Below are positions 1,686-24,561 of a DNA stretch of 64,000 nt, in pieces (within the stretch, counting starts at the first letter, position 1; every line of letters starts with the position of its first letter). The DNA is from an uncultured Planctomycetia bacterium. GTDB lineage: Bacteria > Omnitrophota > Gorgyraeia > 1-14-0-20-64-10. The stretch covers positions 11,124 to 75,123 of the forward strand of contig CAYJQV010000003.1 in the NCBI GenBank assembly GCA_964372395.1, written 5' to 3'. Under the pieces are notes generated by a model. That model was not told where the DNA came from. It saw only the letters and a program-made list of their open reading frames with translations, and did not search any database. The translations under genes were made by a program, and so were the position numbers.

Positions 1686-2169
1686 GGGGGGGAACCGCCT
1701 CGGGGGGAGGTTTGCCGGAGTGCTGCGCCTGGATCCTCGCCTGCAGTTTGATCAGGCCGTCGAGGACGTTCTCCGGGCGCGGCGGGCAGCCCGGGATGTA
1801 GACATCCACCGGCATGAGGGTGTCGATCCCCATCACGGTGGCGTAGTTGTCGTAGAATCCGCCGGTGCAGGTGCAGACCCCGAAGGCCACCACCCACTTC
1901 GGCTCCGTCATCTGGTCGTAGATCTTCTTCAGGACGGGTGCCAGCTTGTGGCTGATGGTCCCCACCACGAACAGAACGTCGGCCTGCCGCGGGGAGAAGC
2001 GGGGGAACCCTGCGCCGAAGCGATCCACGTCGTAATGCGAGCACGCGGTGGCCATGTACTCCATCCCGCAGCACGCGGTGACAAACGGATACTGGAACAG
2101 GGAGAATTTCCTCGCCCATCCGATCGCGTCGCTGAGCTTCGAGGTCAGGAAATTCTCCGATCCAAACAT
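1663..2169 (-). CDS. nuoB: NADH-quinone oxidoreductase subunit B (20 kDa, Fe-S)
   Basis: The 168-aa ORF has NuoB motifs: CCGMEYMA, GFPRFSPRQADVLFVVGT, GVCTCTGG, IPGCPPRPE. Confidence 0.9.
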   Translation of the reverse strand: MFGSENFLTSKLSDAIGWARKFSLFQYPFVTACCGMEYMATACSHYDVDRFGAGFPRFSPRQADVLFVVGTISHKLAPVLKKIYDQMTEPKWVVAFGVCTCTGGFYDNYATVMGIDTLMPVDVYIPGCPPRPENVLDGLIKLQARIQAQHSGKPPPEAVPPHGRPFTV

Positions 2170-2667
2170 TCTTATTCCCTAGCCCTGCTCGCGCTTGCAC
2201 CGTACCACAAGACAGCACCTCCGGTCCGAATCGCCTGCCCCGATTCGCCGGCCTGTGGGGCAGGGGCAGGTTCACAGGACGGCTCGGCCGCCCCCCCGTG
2301 GCGGCAGGCCTCTCTCTCGGCCTCGCTCGTCCCAAAAGTGTAGGCGTGCGGGGACACCGTGGCCGCTCGGCCTGCGAGAAGCCTGTTCACCTGCCCCTGC
2401 CCTCGGCCGGCTTCCTTCGGAAGAGGGGGGGCACATCGCCTTCTACCAAGAAACCAGGAAGGCTGGGGGGAGATGGGAAATCTCCCCCCGGCCTTCCATC
2501 GAAGCGCCGAAGGCGCTGAGCGCTGGGAAAGGGGAACCCCAGGGGGAAAACCAGCGGCAGCGCGTTTTCCCCCTGGAAAGCGGGGAGACGACCGGCCGGT
2601 CCAGGCACGGCCGCAACGCCAAAAGGCAGACGTCCTCCGTCGGTGAGCGCTCGCGGAGTCTCCCCGC
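2170..2667. other. 0.5-kb non-coding, hairpin-rich spacer between nuoA and nuoB
   Basis: No credible ORF lies here; the track ORFs are low-complexity GC-frame artefacts. Several strong inverted repeats are present, e.g. AAGGCTGGGGGGAGAT-gggaa-ATCTCCCCCCGGCCTT (about 2453-2489), GGGGGAAAAC-n12-GTTTTCCCCC (about 2536-2570), AGCGCC-gaa-GGCGCT and GTGAGCG-n16-CGCTCAC. Confidence 0.5.
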
Positions 2668-3021
2668 TCACTCCCACTCCAGCGCCCCCTTCTTCCAGGC
2701 GTAGATAAACCCCAAGAGGACAACCCCCAGGAAAACGAGCATCTCAAAGAAGCCCGCCCACCCCAACCGCCGGTACACCACGGCCCAGGGGAAGAGAAAG
2801 ACCAGCTCGACGTCGAACAGGATGAAGAGCATTCCGACCAGGTAGAACTTGACGGCGAATCGCCCGCTGGGGAGGTGGAACGGCTGCTCCCCGCACTCAA
2901 ACGGCTCCGACTTGGCCGCCGAGGGCCGCTTCGGCCCCAGGACGCTCGCCAGGAACAGGAAGGCCCCTCCGATCAGAGCGGCAAGCAGGAAGGTGACGGC
3001 AACGCCGAGGTACTCTGTCAT
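2668..3021 (-). CDS. nuoA: NADH-quinone oxidoreductase subunit A
   Basis: 117 aa with three TM segments and the NuoA motif ...EPFECGEQPF...FYLVGMLFILFDVE.... Confidence 0.9.
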   Translation of the reverse strand: MTEYLGVAVTFLLAALIGGAFLFLASVLGPKRPSAAKSEPFECGEQPFHLPSGRFAVKFYLVGMLFILFDVELVFLFPWAVVYRRLGWAGFFEMLVFLGVVLLGFIYAWKKGALEWE

Positions 3022-3056
3022 TGGAAATTCACATTATATAATAGACGGGTGAAGCC
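3022..3056. promoter_or_regulatory. AT-rich divergent promoter region for nuoA (-) and thyA (+) with TATAAT-like hexamers close to both start codons
   Basis: ttcacattatataatagacggg is the only AT-rich stretch locally. TATAAT at about 3037-3042 lies 15 nt before the thyA ATG. The palindromic TATATAAT also reads as a -10 for nuoA about 12 nt from its ATG. No clear -35 is present. Confidence 0.35.
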
Positions 3057-3851
3057 ATGAAACCGTACCTCGACCTTGTGCAGATGATCCTCGACCAGGG
3101 AGTGAAGAAATCGGACCGGACCGGGACCGGGACCCTCAGCCTCTTCGGGCATCAGATGCGTTTCAACCTGGCCGAGGGCTTTCCCCTGGTGACCACCAAG
3201 AAGGTTCACCTCAAGTCGGTGATCTACGAGCTGCTCTGGTTCCTTCGGGGGGATACCAACGTCCGCTACCTCCAGGAGCACGGGGTGACGATCTGGAACG
3301 AGTGGGCCGATGAGCAGGGCGAGCTGGGACCGGTCTACGGGGCCCAGTGGCGAAGCTGGCCGGCCCCGGATGGGCAGACGATCGATCAGATCAGCCGCGC
3401 CGTGGAGGAGATCCGCGCCCAGCCCGATTCCCGGCGACTCATCGTCTCCGCCTGGAATCCGGCGGAGCTGGATCGGATGAAGCTGCCGCCGTGCCACTGC
3501 CTCTTCCAGTTCTACGTGGCGGACGGCCGGCTCTCCTGCCAGCTCTACCAGCGCAGCGCCGACCTCTTCCTGGGTGTGCCCTTCAACATCGCCTCGTACG
3601 CCCTGCTCACCCTCATGTTCGCGCAGGTCTGCGCGCTCCAGCCCGGCGAATTCATCCATACCTTCGGGGACGTCCACCTCTACCTGACCCATCTGGAGCA
3701 GGCCCGGCTGCAGCTCGCCCGGACCCCTTATCCTCTGCCGCGGATGCGCCTCAACCCCCAGGTCCGCTCCCTCTTCGCCTTCACGTACGAAGATTTCACC
3801 CTGGAGGATTACCGGCACCACCCGGCCATCCCGGCCCCGGTGGCGGTGTGA
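3057..3851 (+). CDS. thyA: thymidylate synthase
   Basis: 264 aa with ThyA signatures (RTGTGTLS..., ...[12 protein letters not shown]..., [17 protein letters not shown]). Confidence 0.95.
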
Positions 3852-4384
3852 AGCTTTCCGTCATCGCGGCCGTCGCCCGAAACGGGGTGATCGGCAAAGG
3901 GGGCCGCCTGCCCTGGCATCTGCCGGCCGACCTGAAGCGCTTCAAGACACTGACCCTCGGCCACCCCGTCATCATGGGCCGCAGGACCTTCGAGTCGATC
4001 GGGAAACCGCTCCCCGGCCGCACCAACATCGTCGTCACGCACGAGAGAGACCTGAAGATCTGCGGCTGCCTGGTGGCCCCATCCTTCGAGAAGGCCCTGG
4101 AACTCTGCAATCAAGCTGAGGAGGCGTTCGTTCTGGGAGGTGCGAGCCTCTATGAACAGGCCTTGCCCCGGGCCGATCGGCTCTACCTGACCCGAATCCA
4201 TGCCGATTTCGAGGGGGACGCCCGGATGCCCCCTCTGGACTTAAGTCGCTGGAAGGAGATTTCCCGCGAGGACTTCTTGAGCGAGCCTCTGCCCTACAGC
4301 TTCATCACCTACGGGGGACGCTCCACTTTGGGACACACTGGTTGTGGAGGAGTGTCCCAAAGTGGAGCGTCCCCACATCGATGA
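3848..4384 (+). CDS. folA: dihydrofolate reductase; last ~22 codons encoded by palindromic repeat element
   Basis: A GTG start overlaps the thyA stop (GTGA). [52 protein letters not shown] is DHFR-family sequence. The tail [22 protein letters not shown] lies inside repeat element A. Confidence 0.85.
4314..4374. repeat. 61-bp palindromic repeat element, family A, copy 1 (23-bp perfect arms, 15-nt loop)
   Basis: GGGGACGCTCCACTTTGGGACAC-ACTGGTTGTGGAGGA-GTGTCCCAAAGTGGAGCGTCCCC. A near-identical copy is at about 41956-42014. Confidence 0.8.
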
Positions 4385-5811
4385 CGCTGTTTGAGAAGAT
4401 CTGGGAGCGGCACGTCGTGGCGGAGCTGCCCGACGGGAACGCCCTGCTGTACGTCGACCGGCATCTGGTCCACGAGGTGACCAGCCCGCAGGCGTTCGAG
4501 GGGCTGCGCCTCACCCGCCGGAAGGTCCGCCGGCCGGACCTCACCTTCGCCACGATGGATCACAACGTCCCCACCGATGATCGGATGAATATCCGGGACC
4601 CCATCTCCCGAGCGCAGGTGGAGGCCCTGGCCAGGAACTGCCGGGAGTTCGGGATCCCTCTGTACGACTTGAGCTCCGACAAGCAGGGGATCGTCCACAT
4701 CATCGGGCCGGAGCTGGGGCTCACCCTGCCGGGAACCACCGTGGTCTGCGGAGATTCGCACACCTCCACCCACGGGGCCTTCGGGACGCTCGCCTTCGGG
4801 ATCGGGACCTCCGAGGTGGAGCATGTCCTGGCGACCCAGTGCCTCACCCAGAAGAAGCCGAAGACGCTGCGGGTGGAGTTCGCCGGCACCCTGCCCCCGC
4901 ACGTGAGCTCCAAGGACATGATCCTCAAGCTCATCGGAACGATCGGAACCGCGGGCGGGACCGGCACCGTTTTCGAGTACACGGGCGAGGCGGTCCGGCG
5001 CCTCTCCATGGAGGCCCGGATGACGATCTGCAACATGTCGATCGAGGCCGGCGCCCGGGCCGGGATGATCGGGCCGGACGAGACCACCTTCAACTACATC
5101 AGCTCAGGGAACCGGCCCTTCGCGCCAAAAGGGAGGGCGCTGGAGCAGGCCATCTCCTTCTGGAAGAGTCTGCCGAGCGATCCGGACGCCGCCTTCGACC
5201 GCTCGGTCAGCATCAATTGCTCCGCCCTCGCCCCGCAGGTCACCTGGGGCACGAATCCCGGCATGGTCACCGACGTGACCGGCCGGGTCCCCTCGCCCGA
5301 TGGCGTGCCCGGATACACCGCAAGGGACGTGGAGCAGGCGCTGGCGTACATGGGGCTTGTCCCGGGCACCCCGATCACCAGGATCCGGGTGGACGCGGTC
5401 TTCATCGGAAGCTGCACCAACGCCCGGATCGAGGATCTGCGGACGGCGGCCAAGATCCTGAGCGGCCGCAAGGTCGCGCCGGGCGTGCGCGTGCTGGTCG
5501 TTCCCGGCTCCCAGCAGGTCCGCGCCCAGGCGGAAGCGGAAGGGCTGGATGAGATCTTCAAGGCGGCCGGATGCGACTGGCGTCAATCCGGCTGCAGCAT
5601 GTGCCTCGGGATGAATCCGGATCAGCTCAGGCCGGGCGAGCGGTGCGCTTCCACGTCCAACCGGAACTTCGAGGGCCGGCAGGGGAAGGGCGGCCGAACC
5701 CATCTGGTCAGCCCGGAGATGGCCGCGGCCGCCGCCCTCGCGGGTCATTTTGTCGACATCCAGAGCTGGCTGGGGTCAGACCCTCTGGGGTCTGACCCCA
5801 GTAGGGTTTGA
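4381..5811 (+). CDS. leuC: 3-isopropylmalate dehydratase large subunit
   Basis: [20 protein letters not shown]... with the aconitase-family Cys ligands. I place the start at the ATG overlapping the folA stop, whereas the ORF-track start at 4342 lies inside the repeat. The C-terminal [12 protein letters not shown] is encoded by the 15-mer repeat. Confidence 0.9.
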
Positions 5812-11159: not shown

Positions 11160-11993
11160 TCACCCCTTCATCATCTCCCGAACCATCCGCCCGTACTGCC
11201 GGTTCATCTCGCCTCGCACCCGTGACAGAAGCCGGCGCAGACTGCGCGGCTGAGCGCCCGGGGTGATCGGCGGAAGGATCCGAACCCGCAGAGGTCTCCC
11301 GGGGCGGAAGACCCATCCGCCGCGGGGCAGAAGCTGCCGGGTTCCACACACCACCACCGGGACAATCGGGGTATCGGTCTCCACGGCAAGCCGGAATCCG
11401 CCGCTCTCGAACCGGCCCAGGAGGCCGGTGTGACTGCGCGTCCCCTCCGGAAAGAGGAAGACGGAGATCCCCTTGCCCAGCCAGCGCCTGGCCTGCTCCA
11501 GCGCCCGCCGACCGGACCGCGCCTCTCCCCGCCGCACCGGCACGTAGCCGGCCATCCGCATCCCCCACCCGAGGAACGGAATCCGGAAGAGCGCCTCATC
11601 CGCCACCCAGCGGAACTGGACCGGAAGATCGAACAGGAGCGGCACATCGACGTAGCTCTGATGATTCGCCATGAGAATCGCCGGCTTCCTCCCCGGAAGA
11701 TGCTCCTTTCCGATGAACTCCACCCGCCGGCCGGGCAGCATGCCCACCAGCATCCCGCCCCAGCGGGAAGCGATCCGGTGCAGCAGCCGCCTCTCCGGAT
11801 CCAGCCACGGCCGGAGAAGCCAGACCGGCACCATCGCCAGGCACATCACCGCCGTCGAAAGGCCCACCCCGACCCAGCCGGGAATCGAGAGAACCGCCGC
11901 GCCCCACAGGGCGAGGGGCTGTCCTGCCCGCCGCAGGGGAAAGAGGCCCGCCGCTCTCTGCGTCATCGCGGAGGGAAGGCCTCGCTCACCCAC
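11160..11993 (-). CDS. plsC: 1-acyl-sn-glycerol-3-phosphate acyltransferase
   Basis: HX4D motif NHQSYVDV and the FPEGTRS motif, with N-terminal TM segments. Confidence 0.85.
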   Translation of the reverse strand: MGERGLPSAMTQRAAGLFPLRRAGQPLALWGAAVLSIPGWVGVGLSTAVMCLAMVPVWLLRPWLDPERRLLHRIASRWGGMLVGMLPGRRVEFIGKEHLPGRKPAILMANHQSYVDVPLLFDLPVQFRWVADEALFRIPFLGWGMRMAGYVPVRRGEARSGRRALEQARRWLGKGISVFLFPEGTRSHTGLLGRFESGGFRLAVETDTPIVPVVVCGTRQLLPRGGWVFRPGRPLRVRILPPITPGAQPRSLRRLLSRVRGEMNRQYGRMVREMMKG

Positions 11994-16849: not shown

Positions 16850-16921
16850 CAAGCACAGCGGATACTTGACAAAAGAGTCGGATTTTAAGTATCCTTGATA
16901 TTGGGAGATAGGAGGCAGAAG
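16850..16921 (+). promoter_or_regulatory. putative promoter/operator of the Rrf2-suf operon (TTGACA-like box inside a 31-bp dyad ATACTT...AAGTAT) plus GGAGG RBS
   Basis: gATACTTGACAAAAGAGTCGGATTTTAAGTATcc has inverted ends ATACTT/AAGTAT flanking TTGACA. GGAGGCAGAAG precedes the GTG start of the Rrf2 gene. Confidence 0.4.
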
Positions 16922-17389
16922 GTGAAGATCACATCTCAGGAAGAGTATGGGTTGCGCTGCATGCTGCAGCTGGCGCAGGCGGATGCCCGGCAGGGGCTGA
17001 CCGTCAAGGAGATCGCCGGCCGGGAGGGATTGTCCCCGGCCTATGTGGAGAAGCTGCTTCGGCTCCTCGCCAGGGCCGGATTCATCCACTCGGTCCGCGG
17101 CGTGCATGGCGGCTACCTCCTCAGCCGGAACCCGGCGGAGATCAGTCTCGGAGAAGTGGTGAGGGCGCTGGGGAGCCTGCCGACGACCCAGGATATCTGC
17201 GACCGGCATCCGGGCAACCGGACCAGCTGCATTCACATCGACGACTGCTGCATCCGCTCCGCCTGGGCGACGCTGACCAGCGCCATCGAGGGCTTCATGG
17301 GCAAGGTCTTCATCTCCGACCTGGTGGGTCCCGAGAGCAAGGTGCGGGTCTCGCTTCAGCAGCGGATCACGACACCTTTCTCGGTATAG
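16922..17389 (+). CDS. Rrf2-family transcriptional regulator (IscR/SufR-like)
   Basis: [19 protein letters not shown]... has the Rrf2 HTH. C-terminal cysteines ([18 protein letters not shown]) suggest an Fe-S sensing type. It sits directly upstream of sufCBD. Confidence 0.8.
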
Positions 17390-17403: not shown

Positions 17404-18159
17404 ATGGGCAAGCCGCTGCTGGAGATCGAAAATCTCCACGTGAGCGTGGAGGGAAAGGAGATCCTCAAGGGAATCTCCCTCTCCCTGGAGAAGGGAGAGG
17501 TCCATGCCCTCATGGGCCCCAACGGCTCGGGCAAGTCGACCCTGTCCAACGCCCTCTTGGGACACCCCAAGTATCAGGCAACGCAAGGGACCGTCCTCTT
17601 CCAGGGACAGGATCTGCTGGCGCTCAAGACCGACGCGCGGGCGCGCAGCGGCATCTTCCTCGCCTTCCAGTATCCGACGGCGATCCAGGGGGTGAGCGTC
17701 GCCAACTTCCTGCGGACCGCGATGAAGGCCCGGTTCGGCGACGGATTCCAGCCGAAGGAGTTCCGCCGACAGCTCAAATCGGCCATGCAGCAGCTCGGCA
17801 TTGACGAATCCTTTGCCCCCCGCTACGTCAACGACGGCTTTTCCGGGGGCGAGAAGAAGCGGCACGAGATCCTGCAGATGGCGCTGCTCAAGCCGGTGCT
17901 GGCCATCCTGGATGAGACCGATTCGGGGCTGGACATCGACGCCCTGCGGACGGTGGCCGAAGGGATCAACCGGCTGCGCGGGCCGGAGCTGGGGATTCTG
18001 CTCATCACCCATTACCAGCGTCTGCTCAACTACGTCGAGCCGGACGCGGTGCATGTCCTCCTGGACGGCCGGATCGTCCGTTCCGCGGGGAAGGAGCTGG
18101 CGCACGAACTCGAGGCGAAGGGGTACGCCCCCTATGAAAAGGAGCTGGTCGTCCCATGA
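17404..18159 (+). CDS. sufC: Fe-S cluster assembly ATPase SufC
   Basis: Walker [13 protein letters not shown] signature FSGGEKKR, Walker B/D-loop [14 protein letters not shown]. Confidence 0.95.
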
Positions 18160-20801
18160 ACGAACCCGGGAAGAAACCGCTGAACATCGGCCAGAATTAC
18201 GAGCAGCAGTACGGCTTCCACACACCCGAGAAATACGCCTTCAAGTCCAAGAAGGGGCTCTCCCGGAAGACTGTGGAAGAGATCTCCGGGATGAAGTCGG
18301 AGCCGGACTGGATGAGGCAGTTTCGCCTCCGGGCCCTGGAGGTCTTCTTGAAGAAGCCCTTGCCGGCCTGGGCGGATCTGGAGCTGCTTCGCCGGATTGA
18401 TTTCGAGAACATCTACTACTACATCAAGCCGACGGAGAAGCAGGCGAAAACCTGGGAGGAGGTGCCCGGCGAGATCAAGGAGACCTTCGAGAAGCTGGGC
18501 ATCCCGGAGGCCGAGCGGAAGTTCCTCGCGGGCGTCACGGCCCAGATGGAGTCGGAGGTCGTTTACCACTCCATCCGGGAGGATCTCGAGAAGCAGGGGG
18601 TCATCTTCCTCGGGATGGACGACGGGCTGAGGAAGCACCCGGAGATCGTCAGGAAATATTTCGGGACGGTGATCCCGCTCATGGACAACAAGTTCGCCTC
18701 CTTGAACTCCGCCGTCTGGTCGGGCGGGTCGTTCATCTACGTCCCGAAGGGGGTGAAGGTGGCGATCCCGCTGCAGGCCTACTTCCGGATCAACGCCGAG
18801 AACATGGGGCAGTTCGAGCGGACCCTCATCATCGCCGACGAAGGCTCCAGCGTCCATTACGTCGAGGGCTGTACTGCCCCCTCATATTCGTCTAACAGCC
18901 TCCACTCGGCGGTGGTGGAGCTGGTGGCGTTGCCCCATGCGCACATCCGTTACACGACGATCCAGAACTGGTCCAAGAATGTCTACAACCTGGTGACCAA
19001 GCGGGCCATCGCGCATGAAAACTCCATCGTGGAGTGGCTCGATGGGAACTTGGGCTGCATCCGGGCCGGCGAGCTTGTGTATGCGGAGAACGGTCCGAAG
19101 CCGATTGAGAAGATTGAGCCGGGAACTCGCGTGTGGAGCTTCGATGAGCCGAAGCAGCAGTGGGTGATGCGTCCTGTTGTTGCCGTAAAAAACAGCGGCC
19201 TACAGAAAGTGTACGAAGCCGTTTTCTCGAATGGCCGGACCCTTCATCTTACGGAGAACCATCCGCTCCTTGCCGTCCATCACGATGCTTCACGCCCCTC
19301 CAAGCTGGGGCGGTATTCCCTGCAGTGGACCCCTCTTCAGCGACTCTCTGCCGGAGACCTCGTCGTTTTCCCGACGAAGCTCCCGACGGAAAGCTCGGGA
19401 CACAGGTTCGAGCGACCCCGGTTGAGAGATACGTTCACTGGCCGCAATCAGTACGGCGCACGCTATGAAGTCGCCTCGCATGCGCGTTTGCGTCTTAACT
19501 TGCCTGAGCGCGCGAACGAAGAGACCTGCTGGATGCTTGGCCTCTGGATAGCCGACGGAGACTACACCATCGCGAACGGGGCAGATGGAGGGCCGCGCTA
19601 CGGACGCGTCGGCTGGTCCGTCCCGAGAAAGGACCGCGCCCGAAAGCGCCTGGTGAGGATGCTGAAACAGTGCTCCGGGAATTACCGTGTTGAAGAGCGC
19701 CGGGACGGCCATTACTTCCGCATCAACTCCCCGGAACTTGCCCTGTGGCTACAAGTCAACGGGCTGTTCAACGGCACGAGGGAGAAGAGGGTGCCTCATT
19801 GGGTTTTTGCCTTGCCCACCTCGATGCAACGGTCGTTCCTGGCAGGGTATCTGGATGGGGATGGCTGCCCAAAGGGACCCGGCCTATCCGCCAGGTCGGC
19901 TAACCGCAGTCTGCTGTCCGATGTTCAAATGCTCGCAACGTCGTGCGGCATACACGCATCGGCCATCTACACAGATGAAACCACTCTGGATATTAACGGG
20001 GCGGGTAAAGCCAAGACTTACATCGGACACCGCTTGGACTTGTCTCGTGTCCGTGCCCTGCGGCCTTATCTGAGCCCTGGATTTCGTGCGCGGATGAAGA
20101 CGGCGAAATTAGATCGCAACTTCCAGCGGCCGTCAGGAATGCGGGCGACTCGCTTACTGCATGAAGACGTGGGCGTTGCCCGAATCACCGCAATCCGGCC
20201 ATCCGGAGTCGCTCCCACTTACGACTTGGAGATCGACGGTACATCCTCTTTTGTGGTGAACGGCATTCTCGTGCACAACAGCAAACTCACCATGAAGTAC
20301 CCCGCGGTCCATCTGGTGGGGCCGAAGGCGCGCGGGGAGGTGGTCTCCGTCGCCTTCGCCGGAAACGGCCAGCATCAGGATGCCGGGGCGAAGATGATCC
20401 ACTCCGCTCCGGAGACGAGCTCCACGATCCTCTCCAAGTCCATCTCCAAGGACGGGGGGCGGACGAGCTACCGGGGGCTGGTCAAGGTCTACCCGCAGGC
20501 GGAGAACGTCAGGTCGTCCGTGCGCTGCGATGCCCTGCTCATGGATGAGCAGTCGAGGTCGGACACCTACCCGACCATGGAGATCGACGCCAAGAGGGTC
20601 CAGATCGGCCATGAGGCGACGGTCAGCAAGGTGGGAGAGGAGCAGCTCTTCTACCTGATGAGCCGGGGCCTGAAGGAGCAGGAGGCCACCACGATGATCG
20701 TCAACGGATTCTTCGAGGCCTTCACCAAGGAGCTGCCGCTGGAATACGCGGTGGAGCTGAACCGGCTGATCCAGCTCGAGATGGAGGGATCGGTAGGGTG
20801 A
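18156..20801 (+). CDS. sufB: Fe-S cluster assembly protein SufB, interrupted by an in-frame intein (extein ~473 aa)
   Basis: The 881-aa ORF is SufB-like N-terminally (to ...[10 protein letters not shown]) and C-terminally (from [24 protein letters not shown]...), with a 408-aa insertion between. Confidence 0.95.
19056..20279 (+). mobile_element. SufB intein with LAGLIDADG homing-endonuclease domain
   Basis: The insertion begins with Cys (CIRAGELV, block A) and has block B TxxH (LTENHPLL) and two LAGLIDADG motifs ([11 protein letters not shown] and [10 protein letters not shown]). It ends ...VVNGILVHN followed by Ser (+1 nucleophile). Removing it restores a canonical-length SufB. Confidence 0.85.
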
Positions 20802-22042
20802 TGACGCTGACCCCGGAACCTTCCGTTCGGCTGAGCGACCTGCGCCGGGCCGCCAGGGAAAGATTTGATTCCATTCCCTGGCCGACGCGGACCGACGAAG
20901 AGTGGCGGCGGACCGACCCGGCCTCCCTGCCCTTGAAGGAGCTGGGTCTGCAGGCGGCGGATTCGGCCCTGAACGTCGGCTGGGAGCCCCTGCCGACCGC
21001 CTGGGCGCAGGCCGGCGTGATCGTAACCGACCTGGCCAGCGCGCGCCAGAAGCATCCCGAGCTCCTGGAGCAGTACCTCTTCCAGAGCGGCCGGACCGAA
21101 GGGCTTGCGAAGTTCGTCGCCCTTCACCAGGCCCTCTCGCAGCAGGGGCTCTTCTGCCATGTGCCCGAGGGGGTGCGGCTCGATTCGCCTCTCAAGCTCT
21201 GGATGGAGCCGCGCGGGGATGGGGCAACGCTCTTCCCCCACCTCCTGCTGGTGCTCGGCCGCCGGGCGAGCGCGGTGGTGATTGACGAGCGCCGGGGCCC
21301 GGCGGGAGGCAGGGGCCCTTCCGGAGGGAACGGGGGGGCACCCCTCTTCTCAGACGAGATGGCGGAGATCTTCCTGGGGCCGGAGGCGGAGCTCCAGTAC
21401 ATTCACCTGCAGCGCTGGGGCCGGCAGGTCACCGAGGTTTTCACCCAACGGGCCCTGCTGGAGGGAGAGTCGCAGCTCGTCAGTGTCACCATCGGCCTGG
21501 GGGGAAAACTGACCAAGGCCAACGTCGAGACGGTGCTGCAGGGGCCGGCCGCCCGGTCCGAGCTGCTGGGCGTCCTGTCCGGATCGGACGATCAGCACTA
21601 CGACTTTCATACCCTCCAGGACCACCGCGCGACCGCCACCTGGAGCAACCTGCTCTACAAGAGCGCCTTGAGCGGCGAGGCGAAGGCGATCTACACCGGC
21701 CTCATCCGGATCGCCAAGCAGGCGCAGAAGTCGGACGCCTACCAGGCGAACCGCAGCCTGCTCCTCAGCCAGGGGGCGAGCGCCGACTCGATCCCGATGC
21801 TGGAGATCGAGGCGGATGATGTGCGCTGCACGCACGGCGTCGCGGTGGGCCCGGTGGATGAGGAGCAGCTTTTTTATCTGATGAGCCGGGGGCTGGAGGC
21901 CGCGCAGGCCGAGCGGCTCATCGTGGAGGGATTCTTTGAACCGGTCTTCCGGCGTCTGCCCTCGGAGAATCTGCGCCGGGGGCTGATGGCCGAGGTCATG
22001 AGGCAACTGACAGGGGGTGGAGATGATCACGTTGACGGATAA
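20798..22042 (+). CDS. sufD: Fe-S cluster assembly protein SufD
   Basis: 414-aa SufB/SufD-family beta-helix protein following sufB with an ATGA overlap. The C-terminal ...[22 protein letters not shown]... is typical of the SufBD family. Confidence 0.9.
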   Translation: MMTLTPEPSVRLSDLRRAARERFDSIPWPTRTDEEWRRTDPASLPLKELGLQAADSALNVGWEPLPTAWAQAGVIVTDLASARQKHPELLEQYLFQSGRTEGLAKFVALHQALSQQGLFCHVPEGVRLDSPLKLWMEPRGDGATLFPHLLLVLGRRASAVVIDERRGPAGGRGPSGGNGGAPLFSDEMAEIFLGPEAELQYIHLQRWGRQVTEVFTQRALLEGESQLVSVTIGLGGKLTKANVETVLQGPAARSELLGVLSGSDDQHYDFHTLQDHRATATWSNLLYKSALSGEAKAIYTGLIRIAKQAQKSDAYQANRSLLLSQGASADSIPMLEIEADDVRCTHGVAVGPVDEEQLFYLMSRGLEAAQAERLIVEGFFEPVFRRLPSENLRRGLMAEVMRQLTGGGDDHVDG

Positions 22043-22346
22043 GGCGGCGGACAAGGTGCGTTCCCTGCAGCGGCAGGAGTCCAAGGAGGGATACGCCCTG
22101 CGGCTGCGCGTGGTGGGCGGCGGCTGCTCGGGCTATTCCTACAGCATGGACTTCGAGCAGAACCCCGGGCAGGGGGATCTGACGTTCGAGGATCATGGGG
22201 TGAAGATCCTCGTGGATCCGAAGTCCCTCGCCATGATCGACAACAGCCAGGTGGACTGGGTGGACGGGATGACGGGGGCCGGCTTCACCCTGCAGAATCC
22301 CAACGCCAAGGGGACCTGCGGCTGCGGGCACTCCTTCACCGTCTGA
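22017..22346 (+). CDS. A-type Fe-S carrier (SufA/IscA/ErpA family)
   Basis: ...GYALRLRVVGGGCSGYSYSMDF... and the C-terminal CGCGHSF motif with three conserved Cys. Confidence 0.85.
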   Translation: MEMITLTDKAADKVRSLQRQESKEGYALRLRVVGGGCSGYSYSMDFEQNPGQGDLTFEDHGVKILVDPKSLAMIDNSQVDWVDGMTGAGFTLQNPNAKGTCGCGHSFTV

Positions 22347-22414
22347 CGGACTTGGTCATCCCCGCGCTGACGGACTTGGTCATCCCCGCGCTGACGGACT
22401 TGGTCATCCCCGCG
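22344..22414. repeat. 24-bp tandem direct repeat x3 starting at the A-type carrier stop codon (TGACGGACTTGGTCATCCCCGCGC), ending in GC hairpins
   Basis: Units sit at about 22344-22367, 22368-22391 and 22392-22414. The last unit runs into the hairpin CCCCGCG-aaa-GCGGGG and then GGGAG-cgga-CTCCC. Confidence 0.75.
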
Positions 22415-22463: not shown

Positions 22464-23705
22464 TTGATGCTTGACGTTGAGCGGGTAAGAGAGGATTTCC
22501 CGATCCTGCGCCGGACGGTGCGGGGCCATCCCCTCGTCTACCTGGACAACGCGGCCACCTCGCAGAAGCCCCGCGCCGTTTTGGAGGCGCTGGTGGAGTT
22601 CTATTCCCGGACCAACGCCAACATCCACCGGGGGATTCACACCCTGAGCGAGGAGGCGACCGCCCTCTATGAGGGAACCCGCCAGAGGGTCGCCCACTTC
22701 ATCGGGGCGCAGAAAGCCCGGACGATCATCTTCACGCGCAACGCCACCGAGGCGATCAACCTGGTCAGCCATGCCTGGGGGCTCTCGCGCATCGGAGCGG
22801 GAGAGGAGATCCTCCTGACGGAGATGGAGCACCACTCGAACCTCGTCCCCTGGCAGCTGCTGGCCCAGGCCCGGGGCGCAACCTTGAGGTTCATCCCGGT
22901 GCGAGGCGACGGCCACCTGGCTCTGGAGGAGCTTCCGCGCCTCCTGGGAGAGAAGACGCGCCTCGTGGCCATGACCCTCATGTCGAATGTGCTGGGAACG
23001 ATCAACCCCGTCGACGTGGTCATCCGGGCAGCGCACGCCCGGGGGATCCCGGTCCTGGTGGACGGCGCCCAGGGGGTTCCTCACCTGCCCGTGCGGGTGG
23101 AGGAGCTGGGGTGCGATTTCCTTGCCTTCTCCGCCCACAAGATGCTGGGGCCCACCGGCGTCGGCGTCCTCTACGCGAAGGAGCATCTCCTCGAGGAGAT
23201 GGAGCCGTTCCTCGGAGGCGGGGACATGATCCGGGACGTCTGGCTCGATCACGCGGTCTGGAACGACCTGCCCTGGAAATTCGAGGCGGGAACCCCGAAC
23301 ATCGCCGATGTGATCGCCTTCGGCAAGGCGCTCGAGTACCTGGAGCGGCTCGGCATGGCGGACGTCCGGCTGCACGAGCAGGGGCTGGCCGGCTACGCCC
23401 TCGAGCGCCTGCAAGAGGTGGAGGGATTGAAGATCCACGGGCCCAGCGACCCCAAGGCGCGGGGCGGGGTGATCTCCTTTGAGCTGGGCGGCCTTCATCC
23501 GCATGACCTGGGGCAGATCCTGGACGAGGATGGGATCGCGATCCGGGCCGGGCACCACTGCTGCAAGCCGCTCATGCGCAAGCTGGGGGTCGTGGCCACG
23601 GCCCGAGCGAGCTTCTACATCTACAACACCCGGGAGGAGCTGGACGCCCTGGTCCAGGGAATCCGGAAGGCCAAGGAGGTTTTCGCCGTTGCCTCTCAGC
23701 GATGA
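22464..23705 (+). CDS. sufS: cysteine desulfurase SufS
   Basis: Class V aminotransferase fold with the PLP lysine in SAHKMLGPTG and catalytic Cys in ...RAGHHCCKPL.... Confidence 0.9.
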   Translation: MMLDVERVREDFPILRRTVRGHPLVYLDNAATSQKPRAVLEALVEFYSRTNANIHRGIHTLSEEATALYEGTRQRVAHFIGAQKARTIIFTRNATEAINLVSHAWGLSRIGAGEEILLTEMEHHSNLVPWQLLAQARGATLRFIPVRGDGHLALEELPRLLGEKTRLVAMTLMSNVLGTINPVDVVIRAAHARGIPVLVDGAQGVPHLPVRVEELGCDFLAFSAHKMLGPTGVGVLYAKEHLLEEMEPFLGGGDMIRDVWLDHAVWNDLPWKFEAGTPNIADVIAFGKALEYLERLGMADVRLHEQGLAGYALERLQEVEGLKIHGPSDPKARGGVISFELGGLHPHDLGQILDEDGIAIRAGHHCCKPLMRKLGVVATARASFYIYNTREELDALVQGIRKAKEVFAVASQR

Positions 23706-24561
23706 CCTCTACCGGGAGATCATCCTCGAGCACTTCAGGAGCCCGAGGAACGCCGGCCGGCTGGAAAACCCGAGCCTGACCTCGCAGGGGGCAAATCCAT
23801 TCTGCGGGGATGAGATGGAGCTCACCGTCACCCTGGACACGGACCGGATCCAGGAGATCCGGATCCAGGCCCGCGGCTGCTCGATCTCGCAGGCGTCGGC
23901 CTCCATGATGTCGGAAGCGGTCAAGGGCAAACCGATCCGCCTCGCCGAGGAGCTGGCCCGGCAGTTCAAGGCCACCATGCTGGAAGGGGCGCCCGTTGGA
24001 AACGGCCCCGAATGGGAGGAGCTGCAGGCGCTGGAGGGGGTCAGGAAATATCCGGTCCGGATCAAATGCGCCCTCCTCTGCTGGAACACCCTCCTGGAGG
24101 GAATCGGGGCGTTCCGAAAGGGAGAGAGGAAGGCCGTCCACACGGAGATCGGGGAGCCGGACGCGGAGCCGGCAGCGCAACCGGCGGATCCGGCCGCTTC
24201 AGCGCAGGGCCCATCGCCCGCCGGTCCGCAGGCCTCCTCGCCCGCCGACCCGCCCGACGGCTCGCCGGAGGAGCAGGTGCTCGCCGCCCTCAAGAGGGTC
24301 ATTGACCCGGAGCTCAATCTGAACATCGTGGACCTCGGCCTGGTCTATGCCACCGCGGTGAACGGCGGCAGCGTCCAGGTCACCTACACCCTGACCAGCC
24401 CCGGCTGCCCGCTGGGCCCGGTGATCAAGGGGCAGGTGCAGTCGGCCCTGTCCAAGCTGCCCTGGGTCAAGGAGGTTCACACCGAGCTTGTCTGGCAGCC
24501 ACCCTGGGATCCCAGGACGATGGCCTCCGAGGAGATCAAGACGGAGCTGGGGATATGGTGA
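23690..24561 (+). CDS. SufU/NifU-like scaffold fused to C-terminal DUF59 (SufT/MIP18-like) domain
   Basis: Probable TTG start with AAGGAGG 9 nt upstream, overlapping the sufS 3' end. The N-terminus is SufU-like (LYREIILEHFRSPRN...PFCGDEM...GCSISQASASMM). A Pro/Ala-rich linker follows, then DUF59 (ALKRVIDPELNLNIVDLGLVY...TSPGCPLG). Confidence 0.7.

Follow-up and report, generated by a model that had tools for sequence, protein, structure and literature searches.

The sufB gene in a 64,000 nt stretch of DNA from an uncultured Planctomycetia bacterium (assembly GCA_964372395.1, contig CAYJQV010000003.1, positions 11,124 to 75,123 of the forward strand; termed the window) is interrupted by an in-frame insertion. 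Judged from its sequence, this insertion is very probably a canonical class 1 intein, mobile at sufB, with a LAGLIDADG homing endonuclease of the monomeric two-motif type. Work on SufB inteins has dealt almost exclusively with that of Mycobacterium tuberculosis, as a redox-sensitive splicing switch and drug target. The window element is a selfish element of an ordinary kind, but it is real and resides at a point in SufB other than the one occupied in M. tuberculosis.

Splicing motifs, endonuclease motifs and fold

An earlier reading of this DNA (the first-pass annotation) had placed a 408-amino-acid intein at nucleotides 19056-20279 of an 881-codon sufB open reading frame (ORF), beginning with Cys1 directly after WLDGNLG and ending in VHN directly before a serine at position +1. 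Translation of the window returns exactly these boundaries. The first intein residue, Cys301 of the precursor (nt 19056), lies directly 3′ of EWLDGNLG, and the last residues, ILVHN (ending at nt 20279), are followed by SKLTMKYP. There are no stop codons or frameshifts in the insertion, and taking it out yields a SufB of 473 amino acids in which the conserved host sequence is restored. The computed masses are 99 kDa for the precursor, 53.3 kDa for spliced SufB and 45.8 kDa for the intein (isoelectric point 10.0); the first-pass estimates for the latter two, about 52 and 45 kDa, agree with these values.

The exteins match the TIGR01980 sufB model (3.7e-208) as two segments that adjoin at the insertion. 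Spliced SufB aligns end to end with Escherichia coli SufB (PDB 5awf, 2.6e-113), and its junction is free of gaps in this alignment as well as against M. tuberculosis SufB and 80 intein-less metagenomic SufBs. In E. coli SufB numbering the insertion point is G322/S323 (window Gly300/Ser+1; the slash marks the point of insertion here and below). Joined without the intein, the window flanks read ATCGTGGAGTGGCTCGATGGGAACTTGGGC followed directly by AGCAAACTCACCATGAAGTACCCCGCGGTC. The M. tuberculosis protein reads EWIDGNIGSKVTMKYP at this site, a sequence that its C-extein holds without interruption (PMC8891592). Comparison with intein-less sufB genes of relatives, which the first-pass annotation had proposed, reveals an uninterrupted DGNLGSKLTMK at the same place in L081-L087.

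All eight canonical intein blocks (A, B, C, D, E, H, F and G; Table 1) are readable in the insertion. The block B TxxH reported at first pass is T66-E-N-H69, and the two LAGLIDADG motifs quoted there fall at D167-G168 and D269-G270. When 21 inteins from the window's insertion site are aligned, residues C1, H69, K244, D390, H407 and N408 are invariant, and D167 and D269 are conserved in at least 90% of the sequences. We take K244 to be the block D lysine of intein endonucleases. The residues of blocks A, B, F and G that mark splicing competence (C1, H69, D390, H407 and N408) are all present in this alignment. Because Cys1 is present and the WCT triplet is absent, the element belongs to class 1 rather than to class 2 or class 3.

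Scored alone, the intein passes the cut-offs of Pfam Intein_splicing (37.6 bits; cut-off 35.8) and LAGLIDADG_3 (31 bits; cut-off 22.5), and those of TIGR01445 intein_Nterm (29.2 bits; cut-off 24.5) and TIGR01443 intein_Cterm (25.8 bits; cut-off 15.6). Such scores lie well above chance expectation. Its top sequence match in the PDB is the intein endonuclease PI-PkoII (2cw7, 8.3e-06), followed by DnaB, DnaX and GyrA mini-inteins at blocks F and G. An AlphaFold model of the intein (predicted local distance difference test score, pLDDT, of 74) retrieves the TliVMA, PI-PkoII, PI-SceI and PI-PfuI inteins with Foldseek at E-values of 1e-9 to 1e-13. The endonuclease core of the model superimposes on I-DmoI with a target-normalised template modelling (TM) score of 0.6-0.68 over about 190 residues. 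In its first repeat, helix 155-167 is followed by strands 168-174 and 180-188 and helix 196-207. The second repeat consists of helix 255-269, strands 270-273 and 276-281, helix 284-296 and strands 305-312 and 319-330. This arrangement fits the doubled alpha-beta-beta-alpha-beta-beta-alpha fold of monomeric LAGLIDADG enzymes. The eight blocks, the profile scores above their Pfam and NCBIfam cut-offs and the fold matches together therefore identify a class 1 intein with a two-motif homing endonuclease. The view taken at first pass, that the element is intact and probably active, agrees with the retention of every block and catalytic residue in a reading frame free of stops and frameshifts.

A further motif, G-R-N-Q-Y-G-A-x-Y, lies outside the canonical blocks, in the linker that joins the splicing domain to the first LAGLIDADG helix (window positions 19440-19469; intein residues 129-138). 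Members of the same-site intein family conserve it (alignment consensus FxGxNQYG), and it may be an extra DNA-contact element.

The proposed course of splicing follows the established class 1 pathway, and the residues that it calls for were verified in the sequence. A 99 kDa precursor would be translated with the suf operon. With T66 and H69 of block B assisting, an N-S acyl shift at Cys1 would form a thioester, and attack on this thioester by Ser+1 (transesterification) would give a branched ester. Cyclisation of Asn408, helped by His407 and the block F residue Asp390, would free the 45.8 kDa intein, and an O-N shift would then produce native SufB of 53.3 kDa. The freed, basic intein is predicted to cut intein-less sufB at the insertion site by means of Asp167, Asp269 and Lys244, and repair from the occupied allele would copy the intein into the cut gene (homing). 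Homing would also explain the patchy distribution of the element across phyla.

Relatives at the same site and at other sites in SufB

A single-sequence search of 5.8 billion proteins gave 18 matches, all of them SufB proteins with the insertion at the window's site, the best being 59% identical. In a pattern scan of GTDB species, each represented by a single genome, about 29, all of them metagenome-assembled genomes (MAGs), had a full-length homologue at exactly DGNLG/SKLT. The hosts of same-site inteins belong to Planctomycetota, Omnitrophota, Armatimonadota, Chloroflexota, Actinomycetota, Saccharibacteria and DPANN archaea. The closest copy, 79% identical, is that of another uncultured Planctomycetia bacterium (L001, CAYJUA010000074.1). 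Copies from Planctomycetales, Omnitrophota and Armatimonadota (Fervidibacter included) are 57-61% identical, and those from Chloroflexota, Actinomycetota, Saccharibacteria, Woesearchaeota/Nanoarchaeota and a Methanosarcinales MAG are 30-40% identical. More than 25 homologues equal the window intein in length.

Few sequences were added by a profile search of the 5.8-billion-protein set with the 21 same-site inteins, and cultured organisms were absent from the matches listed. HMMER, run exhaustively against 1.84 billion cluster representatives, gave the same picture of hosts, together with related inteins at other SufB positions. Specifically, these are AQYE/SEVVYH, WSGG/SFIYVP, VEG/CTAP and VYN/(L or C)xTKR, which with GNLG/S bring the SufB intein sites seen to at least five. 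Two inteins in one SufB ORF are frequent (L001, positions 1781-5659; P0001, P0008, P0014, P0020, P0022 and P0029). Such precursors are about 1240-1290 amino acids long and are occupied at VEG/CTAP and at the window's site; the window carries only the downstream one.

In a neighbour-joining tree with the M. tuberculosis SufB intein as outgroup, the Planctomycetota, Omnitrophota and Armatimonadota copies form a clade with bootstrap 100, and the deep nodes between site families have values below 50. Mini-inteins without an endonuclease occur among the relatives, with lengths of 189-193 amino acids (P0015 and P0017) and 256 amino acids (P0008-P0012 and P0298-P0302).

We consider it possible, but hold it only tentatively, that DGNLG/SKLT is an uncatalogued intein point, that SufB is a multi-site hot spot, and that one endonuclease-bearing lineage has spread across domains and possibly between sites. 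Such spread may extend from bacteria of the Planctomycetes-Verrucomicrobia-Chlamydiae (PVC) group, Armatimonadota, Chloroflexota, Actinomycetota and Saccharibacteria to DPANN and Methanosarcinales archaea.

Carriage of the intein by a phage or plasmid was considered and rejected. Phage and plasmid collections contain no close copy; the inteins found there are only 21-28% identical and lie in unrelated host genes, namely those for terminase, portal protein, polymerase and Dam methylase.

Two unusual records were encountered among the relatives. The same-site intein of an Acidimicrobiia MAG (L043:6001-7217, JBHHXA010000003.1) is frameshifted after about 150 codons, so that the deposited protein (P0018) has its start within the intein; either the copy is decaying or the assembly is in error. 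A mycobacterial-type SufB of 650 amino acids from a Joint Genome Institute (JGI) metagenome (P0172) contains the segment SEVVYH to VEGCTAP twice, joined by the C-terminal 40 residues of an AQYE/S-site intein. Mis-assembly of an intein-less allele with an intein-bearing one is the probable cause.

Signs of mobility and selection, and alternative explanations

The base composition of the intein sets it apart from its host gene. GC content at third codon positions (GC3) is 0.68 in the intein versus 0.905 in the exteins, and other high-GC hosts show the same gap. The ratio of non-synonymous to synonymous substitution rates (dN/dS), taken against L001 at unsaturated dS values of 0.72-1.04, is 0.09 in the splicing domain and 0.19 in the endonuclease domain.

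The codon for Ser+1 also differs between occupied and empty alleles. AGY is used by 27 of 30 occupied alleles versus 15 of 82 empty ones, the rest having mostly TCN (3.5e-12 in a Fisher test uncorrected for phylogeny). This enrichment, found in a comparison of L001-L160, holds across hosts with GC3 from 0.14 to 0.95, and AGY and TCN codons are at least two bases apart. The bias looks like co-conversion of flanking DNA or a target preference of the endonuclease. Foreign codon usage, purifying selection on the endonuclease and the Ser+1 codon bias together point to a mobile element under selection.

Close relatives differ in what they carry. L081, a metagenomic SufB with 91% identity over the C-terminal half, is free of inteins at every site, and the best 80 metagenomic matches to spliced SufB are all contiguous. 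L001, with exteins 88-92% identical, has the window-type intein plus a second intein at the M. tuberculosis site, and P0046, with exteins about 90% identical, holds at the window's site an intein of a different lineage (31-33% identical). The empty site in L081 and the different lineage in P0046 suggest recent gain or loss.

Several points weigh against a canonical, mobile intein. Block F has a serine where inteins often have a histidine, which is kept in other members of the family; this histidine is not universally required in inteins. The HINT (splicing) domain of the AlphaFold model is of only moderate confidence (pLDDT 50-80), and the codon statistic given above is uncorrected for shared ancestry. 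Moreover, the genome, being a MAG, may have a second, intein-free copy of sufB that relaxes selection on splicing.

It is less probable, though to be taken seriously, that splicing has been kept while the endonuclease has become inactive, the element being fixed, vertically inherited and on its way to a mini-intein. Mini-inteins of the same family do exist, the PVC-clade intein tree roughly tracks host grouping (the window with L001, then L007 with L008; bootstrap 87-100), and endonuclease activity is not readable from sequence alone. However, both catalytic Asp-Gly pairs and the block D lysine are retained, the endonuclease domain is under purifying selection at a dS of 0.72, and the empty site in L081 and the different intein lineage in P0046 speak for recent gain or loss. 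The mini-inteins and the L043 frameshift are the expected later stages of a homing cycle.

Domestication of the intein as a conditional-splicing switch, tuning SufB under redox or metal stress as proposed for M. tuberculosis, appears improbable. The host protein is indeed the same Fe-S scaffold, used under oxidative stress, and it takes inteins at five or more conserved sites; unspliced M. tuberculosis SufB is unable to assemble SufBCD (PMC8529194). The redox mechanism in M. tuberculosis, however, is a disulfide between Cys1 and Cys+1 (PMC8529194), and such a trap is impossible in the window intein because its +1 residue is serine. Furthermore, the closest relative lacks the intein, the codon usage of the intein is foreign, and an intact endonuclease that is under selection is more in line with a selfish element than with one adapted to the host.

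We give very little credence to the idea that the insertion is non-functional, being either chimeric by assembly or in decay and turning sufB into a pseudogene. The source is a MAG and L043 provides an example of a broken copy, but the window insertion keeps its frame and all catalytic residues, and the same boundaries recur in about 29 independent species-level genomes. In addition, the surrounding suf operon is intact and translationally coupled, and the window SufB protein is found residue for residue in a second MAG (GCA_947085785.1, contig CAMTXW010000040.1), which places an identical protein on two recorded contigs. A class 1 intein with a mobile endonuclease remains the reading that we favour.

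The suf cluster and other features of the window

The suf cluster is an ordinary one, in the order Rrf2 regulator, sufC, sufB, sufD, A-type carrier, sufS and an ORF with NifU_N and FeS_assembly_P domains (Table 1). The sufC-sufB overlap is ATGA and the sufB-sufD overlap is GTGA, indicating translational coupling on both sides. The true start of the NifU_N/FeS_assembly_P ORF is probably further downstream, because its mechanically assigned start overlaps sufS. Across the suf genes the window is identical to the second MAG contig (L080) for 7.2 kb; from about position 22390, between sufA and sufS, register is lost, as an indel of about 24 nt would cause.

When a six-frame translation of the window was searched with the family hidden Markov model (HMM), only the sufB intein was found, and an Rfam scan of the window found no family. 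ARAGORN reports a 97 nt 'tRNA-???' with a two-base anticodon at 11265-11361 on the minus strand, where Rfam has no tRNA at its gathering threshold. This is probably a false positive inside coding sequence.

Table 1. Positions of the sufB intein, its motifs and the suf cluster genes in the window
Feature	Position	Strand	Remarks
Rrf2-family regulator	16895..17389	+	first suf-cluster gene
sufC	17404..18159	+	ABC ATPase
sufB precursor ORF	18156..20801	+	881 aa plus stop; TIGR01980
N-extein	18156..19055	+	300 aa; ends EWLDGNLG; aligned to E. coli SufB up to G322
Empty second SufB intein site, AQME/SEVVYH	18540..18569	+	
Empty M. tuberculosis-type intein site, VEG/CTAP	18861..18881	+	uninterrupted; Cys corresponds to E. 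coli SufB C254
Intein	19056..20279	+	408 aa, codons 301-708; class 1 with LAGLIDADG homing endonuclease
Block A	19056..19094	+	Cys1 at nt 19056-19058, nucleophile for N-S acyl shift, invariant in family
Block B	19236..19277	+	LTENH, T66-x-x-H69; H69 invariant
Block C	19518..19562	+	first LAGLIDADG motif, LGLWIADG; catalytic Asp167-Gly168
Block D	19776..19811	+	KRVP; K244, P247 and W249 invariant
Block E	19827..19871	+	second LAGLIDADG motif, LAGYLDGDG; catalytic Asp269-Gly270
Block H	19896..19955	+	
Block F	20205..20255	+	invariant D390
Block G	20256..20279	+	VNGILVHN; penultimate His407 and terminal Asn408, both invariant
Ser+1 codon	20280..20282	+	AGC; C-extein nucleophile
C-extein	20280..20801	+	173 aa plus stop; starts SKLTMKYP
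sufD	20798..22042	+	
A-type Fe-S carrier	22017..22346	+	Fe-S_biosyn; SufA/IscA-like
sufS	22464..23705	+	cysteine desulfurase (Aminotran_5)
NifU_N and FeS_assembly_P ORF	23479..24558	+	SufU/IscU-like and SufT-like domains in one ORF, downstream of sufS

Comparison with known inteins

Among solved structures, the best matches in sequence and fold are PI-PkoII (Pko Pol-2, 2cw7), TliVMA and PhoVMA (7qsu, 7qss, 7qst), PI-SceI and PI-PfuI. Like the window intein, they consist of a HINT domain with an inserted LAGLIDADG endonuclease, but their hosts are DNA polymerase, V-ATPase and ribonucleotide reductase rather than SufB, and their identity to the window intein is 13-16%. I-DmoI shares the fold of the endonuclease core as a monomeric two-motif LAGLIDADG enzyme; unlike the window intein, it is free-standing, encoded by an intron and lacking a splicing domain. 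General understanding of inteins is unchanged by the window element. An intact endonuclease of this kind would recognise a highly conserved sufB target of 30-40 bp, which makes it a candidate new rare-cutting enzyme.

Three mycobacterial SufB/Pps1 insertion sites have names in the earlier literature. The M. gastri site was reportedly given the name 'pps1-c' by Saves in 2001. 'SufB-b in M. leprae' is mentioned as a SufB insertion site (PMC5050341), and in M. leprae, M. lepromatosis, M. triplex and M. xenopi the SufB intein site differs from that of M. tuberculosis (PMC8891592). A query with the M. tuberculosis exteins showed only the VEG/CTAP and AQYE/SEVVYH sites in mycobacterial intein-bearing SufBs among the matches listed, where M. 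tuberculosis SufB itself does not appear. Inteins at AQYE/SEVVYH, which are found in Acidimicrobiia, Fimbriimonadales, archaea and mycobacteria (P0249 and P0254), resemble the window intein in host protein, Ser+1, class 1 blocks and full-length LAGLIDADG endonuclease. They are 27-34% identical to it over the whole length, and their site, empty in the window, is about 170 residues upstream.

The first-pass annotation had implied kinship of the window element with the mycobacterial SufB (Pps1) inteins; compared with the M. tuberculosis intein, this holds for the host protein but not for the insertion site or the sequence. Among the matches listed, its relatives belong to uncultured Planctomycetota, Armatimonadota, Chloroflexota, Actinomycetota and DPANN archaea and not to mycobacteria. 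In M. tuberculosis SufB the N-extein ends in SYVHYVEG, the intein runs from CLPAGEL to AYGFAVHN and the C-extein starts with CTAPIYKS (PMC8891592 Table S2). This intein of 359 amino acids and that of the window are both class 1, with Cys1, a block B histidine, a penultimate histidine, a terminal asparagine and a LAGLIDADG domain (PMC8891592). However, the M. tuberculosis intein lies at HYVEG/CTAP (E. coli G253/C254) and has Cys+1, whereas the window intein lies 62 residues downstream at DGNLG/SKLT and has Ser+1. The two are 20% identical over 429 aligned columns, with similarity mostly confined to the splicing blocks. The site and the low identity rule out the window intein as a Pps1 allele of the M. 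tuberculosis type; with the different +1 residue, they define it as a different intein allele in the same host protein.

The window element thus represents a second SufB intein lineage, non-mycobacterial and with Ser+1, in what may be a multi-site hot spot, and it raises the further question of why SufB gathers inteins at several conserved sites. Set beside the M. tuberculosis intein, it offers a natural comparison by which to ask whether conditional SufB splicing is a property of the host protein or of a particular intein.

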